Numbered from the stretch's first letter, positions 4,331 to 54,500 are shown. The stretch: 64,000 nucleotides of DNA from Escherichia coli (GCF_048403405.1 NZ_CP183129.1), one strand, 5' to 3'. The notes: a model not told the origin generated them from the sequence alone. A program made the numbers and translations.

Positions 4331-5833
4331 TTATTCATCAATTCGCGGATGTTGCTGCACCAGGCGGGTACGTTTCGCCTGCAAATCGGCAATCTCGTGG
4401 TCAATATCATCGATTTTCTGCTCGATATTATCGTAATGCTCGACGAGAATTTCCTTCGCTTCCTGTATATCTGACGCCGCCGGTGTCGCACCTTTCAACG
4501 GACGATTTGCCGTCTCTTTCATGGTTACGCCGGTGATTAAACCAACCACCGCCACTACCATCAGGTAATAGGCAGGCATCATCAGATTCTGCGAGCTTTC
4601 GACCAGCCAGGCCGCCAGTGTTGGCGTCAGACCGGCAACCAGCACCGAAATATTAAATGCCGCCGCCAGCGCGCTGTATCGGATATGCGTCGGGAACATC
4701 GCTGGCAAGGTAGAAGCCATAACGCCCGTAAAGCAGTTAAGGATCACCGCCAGCATCAGTAACCCGGCAAAAATCAGGCCGATGACGTTACTGTTAATCA
4801 GAATAAACGCCGGGATCGCCAACACAAACAGTGCAACACTACCAAGTAGCACAAACGGACGACGGCCAAAACGGTCACTCAGCAAGCCCATCACCGGCTG
4901 GACAAACAGCATACCGATCATAATGGCGATAATAATCAGCACCCCGTGGTCTTCGGAGTAATGCAGGTTATGCGACAAATAACTCGGCATATAGGTCAGC
5001 AACATGTAGTAAGTCACGTTGGTGGCAATTACCAGACCAATACACGTCAACAGGCTGCGCCAGTGTTTGGTGGCAATCTCTTTAAACGAGACTTTCGGGC
5101 CATCCTGCAAACCTTCGCGGTCGCCCTGTTCCAGTTTATCAACATGCTGCTGGAACGCCGGAGTCTCTTCCAGCGCATGGCGCAGGTAAAGCCCGATAAT
5201 CCCTAACGGCAGAGCAATAAAGAACGGAATACGCCAGCCCCAGTCGAGGAAGTTCGCTTCGCCGACAATGGTCGAAATTAACACCACCACGCCCGCACCC
5301 AGCACAAACCCGGCAATAGAACCGAAGTCCAGCCAGCTGCCCATAAATCCACGTTTACGGTCAGGGGAGTATTCCGCAACAAATATCGACGCCCCGGTAT
5401 ATTCACCGCCGACCGAGAAACCTTGTGCCATCTTACAGATCAACAGCAGAATCGGTGCCCAAATACCAATCGTATCGTAGGACGGTATTAAGCCAATACA
5501 GAACGTACTGATCGACATAATCACAATAGTGATAGCGAGGATCTTCTGGCGACCATATTTATCGCCCAACATACCAAAGAAGAGTCCACCAAGCGGTCGA
5601 ATCAGAAAGGGAACGGAGAAAGTGGCAAGTGCAGCAACCATCTGCACGCTGGGGTCAGCCCCCGGGAAAAAAACTTTACCTAATGCGTAAGCAACAAAAC
5701 CATAAACACCAAAATCAAACCATTCCATTGCATTACCCAGTGATGCTGCGGTAATGGCTTTACGCAGTTTACCGTCATCAATAATGGTGACATCACGAAG
5801 GGTAATTGGTTTTACTTTTTTCCTTTTCAGCAT
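4331..5833 (-). CDS. proP: proline/glycine betaine:H+ symporter (MFS osmosensory transporter)
   Basis: ORF 4331-5866 trimmed to ATG 5833 (MLKRKKVKPITLRDV...), 500 aa; MFS fold with C-terminal coiled-coil extension. Confidence 0.9.
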   Translation of the reverse strand: MLKRKKVKPITLRDVTIIDDGKLRKAITAASLGNAMEWFDFGVYGFVAYALGKVFFPGADPSVQMVAALATFSVPFLIRPLGGLFFGMLGDKYGRQKILAITIVIMSISTFCIGLIPSYDTIGIWAPILLLICKMAQGFSVGGEYTGASIFVAEYSPDRKRGFMGSWLDFGSIAGFVLGAGVVVLISTIVGEANFLDWGWRIPFFIALPLGIIGLYLRHALEETPAFQQHVDKLEQGDREGLQDGPKVSFKEIATKHWRSLLTCIGLVIATNVTYYMLLTYMPSYLSHNLHYSEDHGVLIIIAIMIGMLFVQPVMGLLSDRFGRRPFVLLGSVALFVLAIPAFILINSNVIGLIFAGLLMLAVILNCFTGVMASTLPAMFPTHIRYSALAAAFNISVLVAGLTPTLAAWLVESSQNLMMPAYYLMVVAVVGLITGVTMKETANRPLKGATPAASDIQEAKEILVEHYDNIEQKIDDIDHEIADLQAKRTRLVQQHPRIDE

Positions 5834-6096
5834 AGCTTTCCTCGCAGAGTTGGCCCATTTCCGCAAACGCCAGAAAAATCAGCGCGACGGCCGCAAAAGG
5901 GGAGCGGGAATTGCAGGATGCAATCTCTGTAACAAGCGTAGCGGGTTTGCTTACACCCTCCGGTTAAGGAATGTACAATCAAACCAGTTGACGCCTGAAT
6001 TGGGCAGTTAATGACCTTTTTACCCTACCAGTGTTTAAATTTGTGATCAACTTCACACATGTATTTCGTTTAGGACTCATTGGTGTAACTGATTAT

Positions 6097-6975
6097 TTAC
6101 ACCAAATTTACAGAGAAGATTTCCTCGACCATTGCCCCCGCCAGACGCTGCGCTGAACAGAGTCGTGGCATCCCCAGCGCGACAGTTTGCCAGCGTTGGG
6201 TCACTGACCAGCAAACGGGTTGTTTATCTGCCGTGGTCCACTTTCCCAGCCAACTTAAAAAATCAGCATGATCCCCGCCCGTCGGAATGGTCGAAGAGGC
6301 AAACCACTGATGGTAATAGTGACGCGTGGTCGGTGCCGCATTGATACTCTCTGCCAGATGTTGTGTCGCTTTCTCGCGCAAATCACCCAGCAACAACGCC
6401 ACCGCTTGCGGGCTTCCCAGACGGCAGGCATCGCCAAATGCCCCCCAGCGCAACTCCTCCAGAACGATAAAACAGCGCCCAGGCAACGACCAGGCGTTAT
6501 ACGCCCCAGCACGCCAGCGGGTAAAAATTTGCTCGCTCTGTTCACCCGCCTGCACCAGTAGGCCTCGTTGCGTTAACGCCTTTTCCTTCCAGCGACAACG
6601 GGCTGAAAACCACTCATACAAGGCGGCAATTTGCTGGGGGAGCTCCGGGAAAGCAGAGTGCTGGCGGTGATCCATTTTTTGCAGCAGCGCCAGATGCTGC
6701 GCGATCTGCGTCAGCGCCAGATGACCGGGATCCAGCATCGACGCCAGTTTTTCCACCAATGTCAGACGCAGGCTAAGCGGCGCATTTAACATCCCGCCGT
6801 TCGTCCATGCCTGAAGCTGCACACGCGCAAGAAGTTCCTGCATCAGTCGTTCACGAAACTGCTGCTGATGGGTTTGTGGATGGCGGGCATCATCGCCCTG
6901 CGCCAGATCCACTAAAAAGCGCGGATGAACCGACTCCAGCACGCGACCGGGGCCGTCCAGTAACGTCTTGATCAA
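6097..6975 (-). CDS. yjcZ: uncharacterised protein, partner of the dynamin-like yjdA
   Basis: 292 aa ORF; start overlaps yjdA stop by 4 nt (translational coupling); matches K-12 YjcZ length and position. Confidence 0.8.
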   Translation of the reverse strand: MIKTLLDGPGRVLESVHPRFLVDLAQGDDARHPQTHQQQFRERLMQELLARVQLQAWTNGGMLNAPLSLRLTLVEKLASMLDPGHLALTQIAQHLALLQKMDHRQHSAFPELPQQIAALYEWFSARCRWKEKALTQRGLLVQAGEQSEQIFTRWRAGAYNAWSLPGRCFIVLEELRWGAFGDACRLGSPQAVALLLGDLREKATQHLAESINAAPTTRHYYHQWFASSTIPTGGDHADFLSWLGKWTTADKQPVCWSVTQRWQTVALGMPRLCSAQRLAGAMVEEIFSVNLV

Positions 6976-51567: not shown

Positions 51568-53154
51568 TTATTGCCCGCGCGTTAACTCCCGCGCGGGTAA
51601 TTGCTCCATCCATTGCATAAACACCTGCGGCGGCATCGCCTTCGCAAAGAACCATCCCTGGCAATAGCGCACGCCGCGTTTGCGCAGCCAGTTAACCTGC
51701 TCCTCAGTTTCGACGCCTTCAGCGATCGTTTTTAACCCCAGACTGTGCGCCAGCTCGATGATGTGTTCCGCAATCAAATGACTGGTTTTATGGGTGGTCA
51801 GCGTCTCAACAAACGATTTATCGATTTTCAAAATATCGACATTCAATGATTTAAGGTTATGCAAGTTAGAGTAGCCAATACCAAAATCATCAATTGCCAC
51901 TTCGTAACCAGCCTGGCGGAAAGCCAGAATAATTGGTGTCATTTTGTCGACATCAAGAAATGCATGTTCAGTCACTTCAAATTTAATTTGCTGTGGACGC
52001 ACCGCGTATTGCTCTGTTTTCTGATTGGTTCGCGCTATCAACCGTGACGTATGAAAATCGGAGGCCGACAGGTTAATAGAAACATAGCGATCGGCATGTG
52101 TTGCCAGGTACGCGCCCAGATCGCGGAAGACATTATCAATAACATAATCAGTTACCTGTCCGATCATCCCCTCCTTTTCTGCCAGCGGAATAAACTCTGC
52201 CGGATTCATTACTTGCCCCTGCTCACCAGGCCAACGTAACAATGCTTCAGCGCCGATACATTTTTCTGTTTTGATATCGATTATTGGCTGGTAATAAAGG
52301 CAAAGTTGATGTTTTTCGAGGGCGCGTTGCAATTTGCGTTTGGGAGACAAATAGTTTTGCCGAATACGTAGCCAGAGTAATAACAGAACAAGACTCCCCA
52401 AAATACCGGCGGGTAACGCAAAAATAAGATGATTATAAAAATGCGCTATAAGACGTTGATATGAAGTCGCAACAATGGCTGCAATTGGGCGTTTTGTCGA
52501 ATAAACTGTCGCATATAAATAGCCATTTCTTTGTACGGTTAAATCATTCAAATGAATCAGTGGAGAAAACGTTGCTGCCGAGGCCTCGTTGCTTAACGAG
52601 AAAAAGGTTTTCGTTACCGTATCATACACACCCCATTGCAATGTCGGATCATCAGACATCACTTCACTCCAGAAGAGAGGGTTGATGACCACCACATAAT
52701 TTCCCCGCTGCATATAGGTCATTTTATAGCCAGAGAAAAAAGGCGTATCGCGGTAATAATAGATAGAAACGTTAGGTTCACGCTTATAATCGGCCGGTGC
52801 AATCGTATAGCCGTTTACAGGCGCTATCAGCGATGAGCATAAAAAATGGTTATCACGGGCATAGATCAATTCATTAATATAAAGATAGCCACGAATAATA
52901 TTCAACATTCGCTTTTGATGGGTTGGAGTGCAAACTTGCCCCTGATAGCGTTCAGCAGCATCGCTCACTAAATCTGCCTGGCGAATGACCAGCTCGGATT
53001 TATCCAGCGCCAGCTGAGCAAAAGTTTGGAGCTGACTATTCACTTCTGATTTTGCCCAAAGGAAGGCAATCCATAGCGACAGAATGATGGGAAAGAGAAC
53101 TAAAAAGATAATGCCCGGCAACGCCAGTAATTGGTGTCGTGCACGATGACTCAT
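51568..53154 (-). CDS. pdeC: c-di-GMP phosphodiesterase (CSS-motif sensor with EAL domain)
   Basis: ORF trimmed to ATG 53154 ([12 protein letters not shown]...), 528 aa; EAL-domain motifs. Confidence 0.85.
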
Positions 53155-53583
53155 TGCTATCAATTTCCTGCCTGTTTATACCCGGTCATTGCAAGGCGAG
53201 AACCCTGGTTATCGACGTCTTTAGATAAATCTTACGGTATAAATAGCACTTTTGCCTGATTTGAAATTGATACCTTTTTAATCGTCACCTGAATAAAAAT
53301 AATTCATTGATATTCAAAACTAATTTCCTACAGGAATGCAGAGGCGGTGGGAAGATATACCCTTAATGCCGCTGAAAAAACACATAATCTGTACGGCAAT
53401 AAAAATCACGGCCTAATCTGGCTAACAAACAATCAATTGTGATATAGTTCACAAAATTAATGAAACAAACAGAGTGTTTCATTTTTGTGTCCTGCAAGCC
53501 CCGCGATAGCCAGAGTGTACCACGCCTCCCGTGAACAACGCCGCGCTGTCCGAGGCATCGGCTCTTTTCAGAGGAATTGTTTG

Positions 53584-53865
53584 ATGGCTACCCTCACCAC
53601 TGGCGTGGTTCTTCTTCGCTGGCAACTTCTTAGTGCCGTAATGATGTTTCTGGCCAGCACACTCAACATCCGTTTTCGTCGGTCTGATTATGTCGGGCTT
53701 GCAGTGATCAGCAGCGGTCTGGGCGTGGTTTCTGCCTGCTGGTTCGCAATGGGGTTGCTTGGCATCACAATGGCGGATATCACCGCCATCTGGCACAACA
53801 TCGAGTCGGTGATGATAGAAGAGATGAATCAGACACCGCCACAATGGCCAATGATTTTGACTTGA
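53584..53865 (+). CDS. yjcB: small inner membrane protein
   Basis: ORF-track GTG start 53485 trimmed to ATG 53584 (GAGG Shine-Dalgarno upstream), 93 aa; two TM helices. Confidence 0.7.
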   Translation: MATLTTGVVLLRWQLLSAVMMFLASTLNIRFRRSDYVGLAVISSGLGVVSACWFAMGLLGITMADITAIWHNIESVMIEEMNQTPPQWPMILT

Positions 53866-53871
53866 TATGTA

Positions 53872-53900
53872 GAAGCCTCCAAAACGGAGGCTTCTTTTTT
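53872..53900. terminator. bidirectional rho-independent terminator between yjcB and ssb
   Basis: 9-bp stem gaagcctcc / ggaggcttc, loop aaaac, then a run of 6 T. Confidence 0.75.
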
Positions 53901-53963
53901 ACGGCTGGCAGATGTTTTAATCATCCACCTTAAAACAATATAACCTATTGTTTTAATGAAAAA

Positions 53964-54500
53964 TCAGAACGGAATATCGTCATCAAAGTCCATCGGCGGC
54001 TCATTAGACGGTGCTGCCGGAGCAGACTGCTGCGGGCGAGACTGCGCGCCGCCGCTGAACTGATTGCCGCCCTGCGGCTGCTGAGGCTGACCCCAACCGC
54101 CCTGCGGCTGACCACCACCGATATTGCCACCTGCAGGAGCGCCACCACCCTGACGACCACCCAACATCTGCATGGTGCCGCCAACGTTCACCACGACTTC
54201 TGTGGTGTAGCGATCCTGACCGGATTGATCGGTCCATTTGCGGGTACGCAGCTGACCTTCGATATAAACCTGAGAACCTTTACGCAGATATTCGCTGGCC
54301 ACTTCTGCCAGTTTGCCGAACAGCACAACGCGGTGCCATTCAGTCTGCTCTTTCATCTCGCCGGTCGCTTTATCACGCCAGGATTCGGAAGTAGCCAGCG
54401 TAATGTTGGCAACTGCGCCACCATTTGGCATGTAGCGTACTTCCGGGTCCTGACCCAGATTACCAACGAGAATAACCTTGTTTACGCCTCTGCTGGCCAT
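53964..54500 (-). CDS. ssb: single-stranded DNA-binding protein
   Basis: 178 aa; OB fold, Gly/Gln-rich tail, C-terminal DDDIPF. Confidence 0.97.

Follow-up and report, generated by a model that had tools for sequence, protein, structure and literature searches.

A conserved palindrome at the start of the yjcB transcript in Escherichia coli: a candidate operator of KdgR-type descent beside a CRP site

YjcB is an uncharacterised small inner-membrane protein (PF15940) which is confined to the Enterobacteriaceae. Its gene has been reported among those most strongly induced under severe acid stress (pH 4.4), and antibiotics also induce it (PMC12987492). In the window considered here, a 64,000-nucleotide stretch of the chromosome of a non-K-12 Escherichia coli strain (NZ_CP183129.1), the relevant segment carries soxR, soxS and pdeC, followed by the divergent yjcB, ssb and uvrA, in an orientation reversed with respect to MG1655. 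The start of pdeC (53154, minus strand) and that of yjcB (53584, plus strand) are separated by a 429-bp spacer, which is 96.6% identical to its K-12 counterpart and in which the RefSeq annotation places no feature. Within this spacer lies a palindrome, reading atgaaaca-aacagag-tgtttcat at positions 53460-53482, which is probably an ordinary but undescribed piece of promoter control; no publication describing it was found in the literature searched. The best explanation, held here with middling confidence, is that it would act on DNA as a promoter-proximal operator of yjcB, of KdgR-type descent and placed beside a CRP site that occludes the promoter.

The initial annotation of this spacer had described a palindrome with 8-bp arms and a trailing T-run at these positions. 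The structure is present as described, and its arms extend to 9 bp: a repeat finder returned the perfect arms AATGAAACA (53459-53467) and TGTTTCATT (53475-53483) with seven nucleotides between them, and TTTTT and then GTG follow on the 3' side at 53483-53490. The parts of the element are as follows.

53459..53467, unstranded: left arm L1, AATGAAACA, at +4..+12 of the yjcB transcript; perfect KdgR-type left half-site and 5' arm of the hairpin
53468..53474, unstranded: spacer AACAGAG, the decayed inner half-site L2 (GAAACAG in Salmonella)
53475..53483, unstranded: right arm R, TGTTTCATT, at +20..+28; perfect KdgR-type right half-site and 3' arm of the hairpin
53483..53490, plus strand: T-run and GTG, TTTTTGTG; TTTTGTG mirrors CACAAAA at 53450-53456 (repeat I4)

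This palindrome exceeds what chance would give: of 2000 dinucleotide shuffles of the 427-bp spacer sequence, 1.5% contained a perfect inverted repeat whose arms reached 9 bp or more around a loop of 3-10 nt, and 6% did so when 8-bp arms sufficed. Seven diverse E. coli genomes carry both arms without change, except for the outermost pair in phylogroup-B2-type strains, which carry CATG and lose the ninth arm pair, and across 5425 E. coli records 3782 share the 54-nt block covering the element (53436-53489) at 100% identity. The arms are likewise retained in the non-coli Escherichia lineages, E. albertii and E. whittamii among them, with the 7-nt spacer between the arms scrambled. Individual records depart from this pattern. 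E. coli 14EC007 (NZ_CP024131.1) carries a yjcB promoter and palindrome allele of the E. albertii type, with the spacer GATTTAG and the right arm CGTTTCATT, which suggests inter-species recombination at the yjcB locus, and in strain 20 the right arm has CTT in place of CAT, breaking one pair. A 9.5-kb contig (NZ_JAUFQN010000013.1) from an assembly labelled Flavobacterium paronense has a yjcB identical to that of the window and a K-12-type upstream region; it is almost certainly E. coli contamination of that assembly.

A primary transcription start site (TSS) of yjcB has been called from differential RNA sequencing (GSE215300) at MG1655 position 4275169 on the minus strand (PMC12987492), which a gap-free alignment of the segment with the K-12 sequence places on the A at window position 53456. 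With the start at this position, the palindrome occupies +4..+28 of the yjcB mRNA, its stem beginning 3 nt after the start, and falls within the region covered by RNA polymerase at initiation. The elements of the promoter, together with the coding sequence, are listed below.

53396..53410, plus strand: marbox of the MarA/SoxS/Rob type, gcaataaaaatcacg, centred at about -53 from the yjcB TSS
53418..53429, plus strand: conserved upstream block CTGGCTAACAAA, at -38..-27, including the published -35 element CTAACA (53422-53427)
53438..53453, unstranded: perfect CRP core TGTGA-N6-TCACA, TGTGATATAGTTCACA, centred at -10.5
53440..53448, plus strand: extended -10 element TGaTATAGT, inside the CRP site, its last base 8 nt before the TSS; TATAGT (53443-53448) is the published -10
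53456, plus strand: yjcB TSS (A), the published start mapped to the window
53584..53865, plus strand: yjcB coding sequence, 93 aa, PF15940, with the Shine-Dalgarno sequence GAGGA at 53571-53575

The yjcB promoter has been listed as CTAACA-15-TATAGT (Shimada, 2014), and its -10 hexamer is exactly the 6-bp spacer of the CRP core (TGTGA-TATAGT-TCACA). Exact CRP cores occur twice in the 64-kb window, against 0.03 expected by chance; the other, TGTGATCAACTTCACA at 6042-6057, lies upstream of a proP-like open reading frame (ORF) (4331-5866, minus strand) and adjoins a 9-bp inverted repeat (TTGGTGTAA..TTACACCAA, 6080-6105). The yjcB intergenic region is among the top CRP predictions of PhyloScan, crp deletion has been reported to raise yjcB expression (RNA-seq and quantitative PCR), and yjcB is a member of the crp-knockout (crp-KO) iModulon; direct CRP binding at 53438-53453 was not reported in the literature found. 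A CRP dimer centred at -10.5, over the -10 element, must repress yjcB by occlusion. The arrangement resembles that of proP P1, to which the perfect CRP core at 6042-6057 belongs and which we take to be CRP-repressed: in both cases a consensus CRP site overlaps core promoter elements, both genes belong to the crp-KO iModulon, and crp mutants raise their expression. At yjcB, by contrast, it is the 6-bp CRP spacer itself that houses the -10 hexamer, and the composite 16-mer is (nearly) invariant in about 80 species.

Further upstream, MarA chromatin immunoprecipitation sequencing has given a predicted site, gcaataaaagtcacg, in the yjcB<>yjcC spacer, and yjcB is also a SoxS ChIP-exo target (PMC5684230). 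The marbox of the window, gcaataaaaatcacg, differs from the published site by one base and is not conserved outside Escherichia. On the opposite side of the spacer, the published promoter of pdeC (yjcC) is TTTTCA-16-TATAAA; its predicted -35 element is polymorphic at 53196-53203, reading TTCTCG in the window strain (plus strand gTGAAAAc in K-12 and gcgagaac in the window).

Species-representative genomes were scanned with a YjcB alignment, which gave 80 loci, of which 76-79 distinct promoter sequences were used in the comparisons below. The sequence GTGATA[T/C/G]AGTTCACA is present at all 80 loci, and GTTTC follows it after 20-24 nt, usually 22-23 nt. The information profile of 79 distinct sequences reaches 2.0 bits at nearly every position of the CRP/-10 block and of GTTTC, with 1.8 bits at the A that follows; around the -35, CTGG is invariant and AA.AAA nearly so. 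As to conservation of the palindrome in the Enterobacteriaceae, which the initial annotation had proposed as a check, the right arm is the firmest part, with GTTTC invariant, A in 77 of 79 sequences and the following TT strongly conserved, while L1 is conserved moderately, as TG-N-AAC, across genera. Immediately 3' of the right arm, the columns fall to 0.05-0.8 bits, near zero. Loop sequence is conserved in most genera, giving the family consensus TATG[A/T]AAC(g)A-GAAACA-N-YGTTTCATT, and the Escherichia lineages have the spacers AACAGAG, GATTTAG, CACTAAT and CAATAAT. Across the roughly 80 Enterobacteriaceae species, the composite CRP/-10 16-mer is conserved far more than the YjcB protein itself.

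These data bear directly on an intrinsic terminator, which is what the T-run had first suggested: either the terminator of an unannotated small RNA (sRNA) from 53170-53460, or an attenuator in the yjcB leader. In either form, the hairpin and U-run would release a transcript of about 30-35 nt, as a tiny sRNA or by premature termination of yjcB. In E. coli and E. albertii the stem is indeed followed by UUUUUGUG, and the E. coli palindrome shares with Rho-independent terminators a stem-loop followed by a T-run. It differs from them in its low-G+C stem, its unconserved T-run and its place at the 5' end of a transcription unit. Only two of the nine pairs are G-C, and the predicted stability is -6.9 kcal/mol (z = -1.26), compared with -17.8 kcal/mol at the yjcB/ssb terminator (53871-53895); a terminator scan that required at least three G-C pairs called the latter and not the palindrome. 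Retention of the T-run is limited to E. albertii, E. coli and a close Escherichia sp. relative, and its columns carry only 0.05-0.4 bits across genera; other Escherichia lineages show it degenerating (TTTTGATG, TTTCGGTA), and other genera lack it even though they keep the arms.

Of transcript ends in the spacer, a 5' end is present, namely the published start at 53456, and the Term-seq tables of Adams et al. contain no 3' end at MG1655 42751xx, the ends annotated to yjcB lying only at the ssb/yjcB terminator. This absence is only moderate evidence, as standard conditions give little yjcB expression and Term-seq libraries may miss RNAs of about 30 nt. Gene prediction and a promoter scan found no plus-strand gene or promoter-like site in 53157-53440 and, with the start at 53456, no upstream plus-strand transcript is apparent that would need terminating. 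The sRNA terminator is not supported, with a yjcB start 3 nt upstream of a weak stem, and the attenuator is disfavoured by the same weak stem, the unconserved T-run and the lack of a listed 3' end; taken together, termination at the palindrome is improbable.

The third possibility raised by the initial annotation, a binding site for a dimeric regulator, is the one that the comparative evidence favours, since the arms match perfect KdgR-type half-sites and the orthologous element in most genera is a canonical KdgR/PlaR box. The KdgR box is AATRAAAYRNYRTTTYATT, and a check of K-12 promoters recovered matching boxes at kdgT, kdgK and kduI:

kdgT promoter (K-12): KdgR box AATAAAACAGCGTTTCAAT
kdgK promoter (K-12): KdgR box AATGGAACACTGTTTTAAT
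kduI promoter (K-12): KdgR box AATGAAACATTGTTTTATT
kduI promoter (K-12), second site: KdgR box AACGAAACAGTGTTTCACT

The box of PlaR (YiaJ) has been published as ATnTGAAACnnnGTTCAnTT and described as KdgR-like. Operators of this KdgR/PlaR type (IclR family) have the consensus AATRAAAYR-N-YRTTTYATT, a 19-bp box with the core GAAAC-N3-GTTTC. A position weight matrix was built from the four K-12 KdgR boxes. With this matrix, L1 and R of the window each reach the maximal half-site score of 14.1 bits (background p = 2.6e-6), and the half-sites AATGAAACA/TGTTTCATT are identical to the consensus of the kdgT, kdgK and kduI operators. Across orthologues the yjcB element, which always starts at +10/+11, has a median score of 15-16 bits, with values of up to 22, whereas 384 kb of flanking DNA contains only four positions of at least 14 bits. 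Salmonella ACAGAAACAGTGTTTCATT scores 21.3 bits, the Citrobacter freundii group 20.1, Leclercia about 20, Raoultella 17-20 and Enterobacter mostly 15-19, and in all of these genera a full KdgR-type box occupies the orthologous position. Scored by itself, and so independently of the invariant right arm, the left half lies above the 99th background percentile in 57% of distinct orthologues.

The Salmonella element reads AAT-GAAACA-GAAACA-G-TGTTTC-ATT, a perfect KdgR box with a tandem duplicate of GAAACA, and its core GAAACAGTGTTTCA is identical to one of the kduI KdgR sites. When one GAAACA copy is removed, so that L1 and R are joined by one central base, the score rises to 28.7 bits, higher than that of any of the four real sites. 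In the window, L2 has a left-half score of only -2.1 (p = 0.09), and the best 19-mer reaches 12.5 bits in E. coli, 6.7 in E. albertii and 4.7-8.4 in the other Escherichia lineages. The E. coli value equals the best chance match in the 64 kb; the single-base gap is absent from the E. coli element and present in most other genera. L1 and R remain perfect in Escherichia despite the decay of L2, and some Kosakonia species are alike in this respect. With fairly high confidence, therefore, the element in most genera may be taken as a KdgR/PlaR-type operator just 3' of the start site, and the E. coli palindrome reads, on sequence comparison, as L1 and R together, each an ideal KdgR half-site, with 7 nt between them where the box has 1.

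Two features of the alignment speak for recognition of the element by a protein. The outer ATT of the right arm is invariant yet has a pairing partner in only 29 of 76 sequences, which fits protein recognition better than RNA pairing, and 32 of 76 sequences (ATGTAAC) have a mismatch at the centre of the stem but keep TG-N-AAC in the remainder of L1, as in a half-site with one tolerated position. The element also lies over the transcription start, where a repressor operator would be expected.

From these observations, a DNA-level model of yjcB control may be proposed. Bound to its perfect site at -10.5, cAMP-CRP occludes the promoter. Comparison gives the ancestral arrangement, as in Salmonella, as a perfect KdgR box in which the hexamer GAAACA is duplicated in tandem, leaving three half-sites: outer left (L1), inner left (L2) and right (R). 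Most genera pair R with L2, giving a box at about +10..+29; in Escherichia L2 has decayed and L1 and R are retained, with a gap of 7 nt instead of 1. A repressor dimer lying across +4..+28 would block open-complex formation or promoter escape, and would thereby constitute a second negative input besides CRP, with MarA/SoxS/Rob providing a positive input from about -53. As to the occupant in E. coli, a CytR-like flexible dimer or a non-canonical IclR-type complex would fit the spacing and the proximity to CRP (25.5 bp from palindrome centre to CRP centre) better than a standard KdgR dimer.

Several observations weigh against this explanation. A canonical KdgR/PlaR dimer would require the E. coli half-sites to lie 6 bp closer together. 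No yjcB entry is found among the genes de-repressed in the kdgR-containing deletion-1 iModulon, or among the PlaR targets from genomic SELEX (systematic evolution of ligands by exponential enrichment) named in PMC6958661, and a literature search gave no KdgR or PlaR binding data for the palindrome or for its counterparts in other genera; absence from the iModulon and from the PlaR targets is consistent with KdgR control having been lost in E. coli. On the RNA side, Escherichia and Kosakonia keep or strengthen L1-R complementarity after loss of the inner half-site. The outer pairs are distributed as AU 44, GU 10, UA 4 and GC 1, with the compensatory and G.U changes that an RNA stem would show, and covariation is 0.081, a value reached by 1 of 500 shuffles, compared with 0.058 in shuffles. 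A conserved helix elsewhere in the 5' untranslated region (UTR) also makes RNA-level control of yjcB plausible. Differences from the known KdgR operators must be added: besides the wider gap in E. coli, the yjcB element has an extra outer left half-site, conserved in all genera; yjcB is not a gene of pectin or 2-keto-3-deoxygluconate (KDG) catabolism; and the data examined show no kdgR- or plaR-dependent yjcB expression. An experimental link of yjcB to KdgR, PlaR or CytR was likewise not found in the literature, including the PPTP-seq supplements.

The strongest competitor of a DNA operator, possible though clearly the less probable of the two, is a stem-loop at the 5' terminus of the yjcB mRNA. 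L1 and R would pair in the transcript, leaving three unpaired 5' nucleotides, and would protect it from 5'-end-dependent decay (RppH/RNase E) or tune its translation. The stem begins 3 nt after the start, which is the geometry of stabilising 5' hairpins such as that of ompA. Such 5' stem-loops reportedly stabilise mRNA (Emory, Bouvet and Belasco, 1992). Folding places the hairpin in both the predicted minimum free energy and the centroid structure, for the element alone and within the whole 145-nt UTR, and paired cells amount to 82.9%, as opposed to 31-41% in slid controls. The two outer pairs vary in a matched manner (GTG..CAC in Kosakonia, TTG..CAA in Phytobacter, GATG..CATC in Klebsiella); in Kosakonia the stem is extended by G-C pairs, to -9 to -12 kcal/mol, and Escherichia preserves the arms around a scrambled loop. 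Double changes are, however, confined to two of the eight stem pairs (nine cells), and the other six never vary on the 3' side and yield no covariation evidence. The central pair is broken by a U.U-type mismatch in 32 of 76 sequences, where the predicted stability is only -1.5 to -4 kcal/mol, and the E. coli stem is no more stable than shuffled sequence (z = -1.26, with 22 of 200 shuffles folding as well). The invariance of the right arm also exceeds what pairing would need. Although it lies within 3 nt of the 5' end, as in the ompA type, the yjcB stem thus differs from that type in being weak, A/U-rich and, in other genera, often mismatched. The two roles are not exclusive, and an mRNA stem-loop may coexist with a DNA operator.

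Further down the yjcB leader a second conserved helix is predicted.

53498..53556, plus strand: 5'-UTR helix, GCC/GAUAGC (53498-53500, 53505-53510) pairing with GCUGUC/GGC (53545-53550, 53554-53556)

It emerged as the RNAalifold consensus of 21 long-UTR orthologues, with nine pairs of which three show compensatory changes, and its conservation indicates that RNA structure matters in the yjcB leader. The helix encloses a segment of variable length, with a conserved CCAGAG just inside, and the block is absent from the short UTRs of the Enterobacter/Lelliottia type. A search of 53100-54000 against Rfam at a permissive threshold gave nothing relevant, the sole match to the palindrome being ctRNA_pT181 (E = 8.7), with none on the helix. 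At the distal end of the leader, the yjcB translation start in many genera is TGTTTCATG, a second copy of the right arm which contains the start codon (about 8 nt before it, plus ATG). This start region is complementary to L1, and E. coli has TGTTTGATG (53578-53586), with one mismatch; judging from this complementarity, L1 might pair alternatively with the yjcB start region.

A special case of the DNA-level operator has also been considered, in which the arms are CytR octamers and a flexible CytR dimer is tethered to the neighbouring CRP dimer. As this proposal falls within the broader operator explanation, the confidences attached to the readings overlap and do not sum to one. Among E. coli regulators, CytR alone is known to bind half-sites set far apart and to need an adjoining CRP, and its SELEX consensus in the presence of CRP is AATGYAAC-N10-13-GTTRCATT. 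Each arm of the palindrome matches the published octamer at seven of eight positions, and the Y position is satisfied in about 30 orthologues in which L1 is ATGTAAC or ATGCAAC. The distance between the palindrome and CRP centres is close to that at udp, where the CytR octamer lies 25 and 27 bp from two CRP centres. As at the udp, deoP2, cdd and nupG operators, inverted AATGnAAC/GTTnCATT octamers are found about one helical turn apart and about 26 bp from a CRP centre. Nonetheless, the TGCAA/TTGCA core (octamers GTTGCATT), clear at the udp, cdd, deoP2 and nupG operators, occurs in the right arm of none of the 76 sequences and in L1 of about five; in the same scan, tsx and cytR gave no octamer match. 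The gap between the octamers, at 9-10 bp, starts one short of the SELEX range. The known CytR promoters are activated by CRP, while at yjcB a single CRP site already represses from -10.5, and the literature found on yjcB gives no link to CytR. Occupancy by CytR itself is accordingly doubtful.

A small ORF beginning within the palindrome would give the arms a coding role, as a micro-protein or leader peptide. The candidates are an ATG at 53460 (plus strand; 24 codons, nearly leaderless) and an ATG at 53482 (minus strand; 39 codons, AGGA 7 nt upstream), and nearly all orthologues have A, G or T as the first base of the L1 NTG, making a start codon 4 nt from the 5' end conceivable. The plus-strand ATG lacks a Shine-Dalgarno sequence, however, and in 26 of 63 distinct orthologues its frame consists of a start codon followed directly by a stop (M*), lengths overall ranging from 1 to at least 45 codons; the minus-strand frame differs between loci with 22- and 23-nt spacing. 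Small ORFs are conserved on neither strand, and such a role is very improbable. In those 26 orthologues L1 is ATG-TAA (or GTG/TTG-TAA), a start-stop arrangement about 4 nt from the inferred 5' end.

Other candidates were considered and set aside. Cra (FruR) matches at the TGAAAC half-site, but it needs adjacent halves and the bases flanking the arms misfit the right half of its consensus. In the conserved CTGGCGAATAAAACAGCAAAT block, a sigma-54 promoter would need a GG..GC spacing that differs by one from that present, and E. coli lacks the GC. A second marbox, over the palindrome or at -37..-18, is represented by partial matches only, and we know of no activator that works from such a position. 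A second CRP site downstream (TGTGT, 53486) consists of one half only and is not conserved. For a minus-strand promoter with the arms as -35 and -10 elements there are no acceptable hexamers, and a promoter scan finds none. To our knowledge, no sRNA is complementary to the right arm.

Beyond the coding sequence, where yjcB and ssb converge, a strong stem flanked on either side by T-runs is found at 53871-53895. It coincides with the 3' ends published for ssb from Term-seq (MG1655 4274757/8, plus strand), indicating a bidirectional terminator. An A/T-rich perfect inverted repeat of 9-11 bp, TTAAAACAATATAACCTATTGTTTTAA, lies just 3' of the ssb stop at 53930-53956, within the yjcB-ssb interval, known from the literature as a hotspot at which a defence island integrates.

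Conservation is extreme in the promoter core of yjcB, where a single 16-mer serves both as perfect CRP site and as extended -10 element and the palindrome follows it, and this degree of conservation indicates tight, multi-input control of yjcB across the Enterobacteriaceae. A more speculative and rather unlikely history would have GAAACA duplicated in a perfect KdgR operator to give the three-half-site element, with the outer pair then reused as a 5' RNA hairpin or as a site for a CRP-tethered flexible repressor, and with Escherichia and Kosakonia losing the KdgR register independently. If such reuse took place, an operator would have been converted into a different regulatory device, to which many genera add an AUG-UAA start-stop 4 nt from the 5' end. 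No general principle is altered by the candidate yjcB operator. Should the KdgR-type operator prove true, yjcB would be tied to plant-polymer and hexuronate sensing in most genera, with this input rewired in Escherichia, and the element would provide both a handle on YjcB function and a clean natural example of a change in operator spacing.

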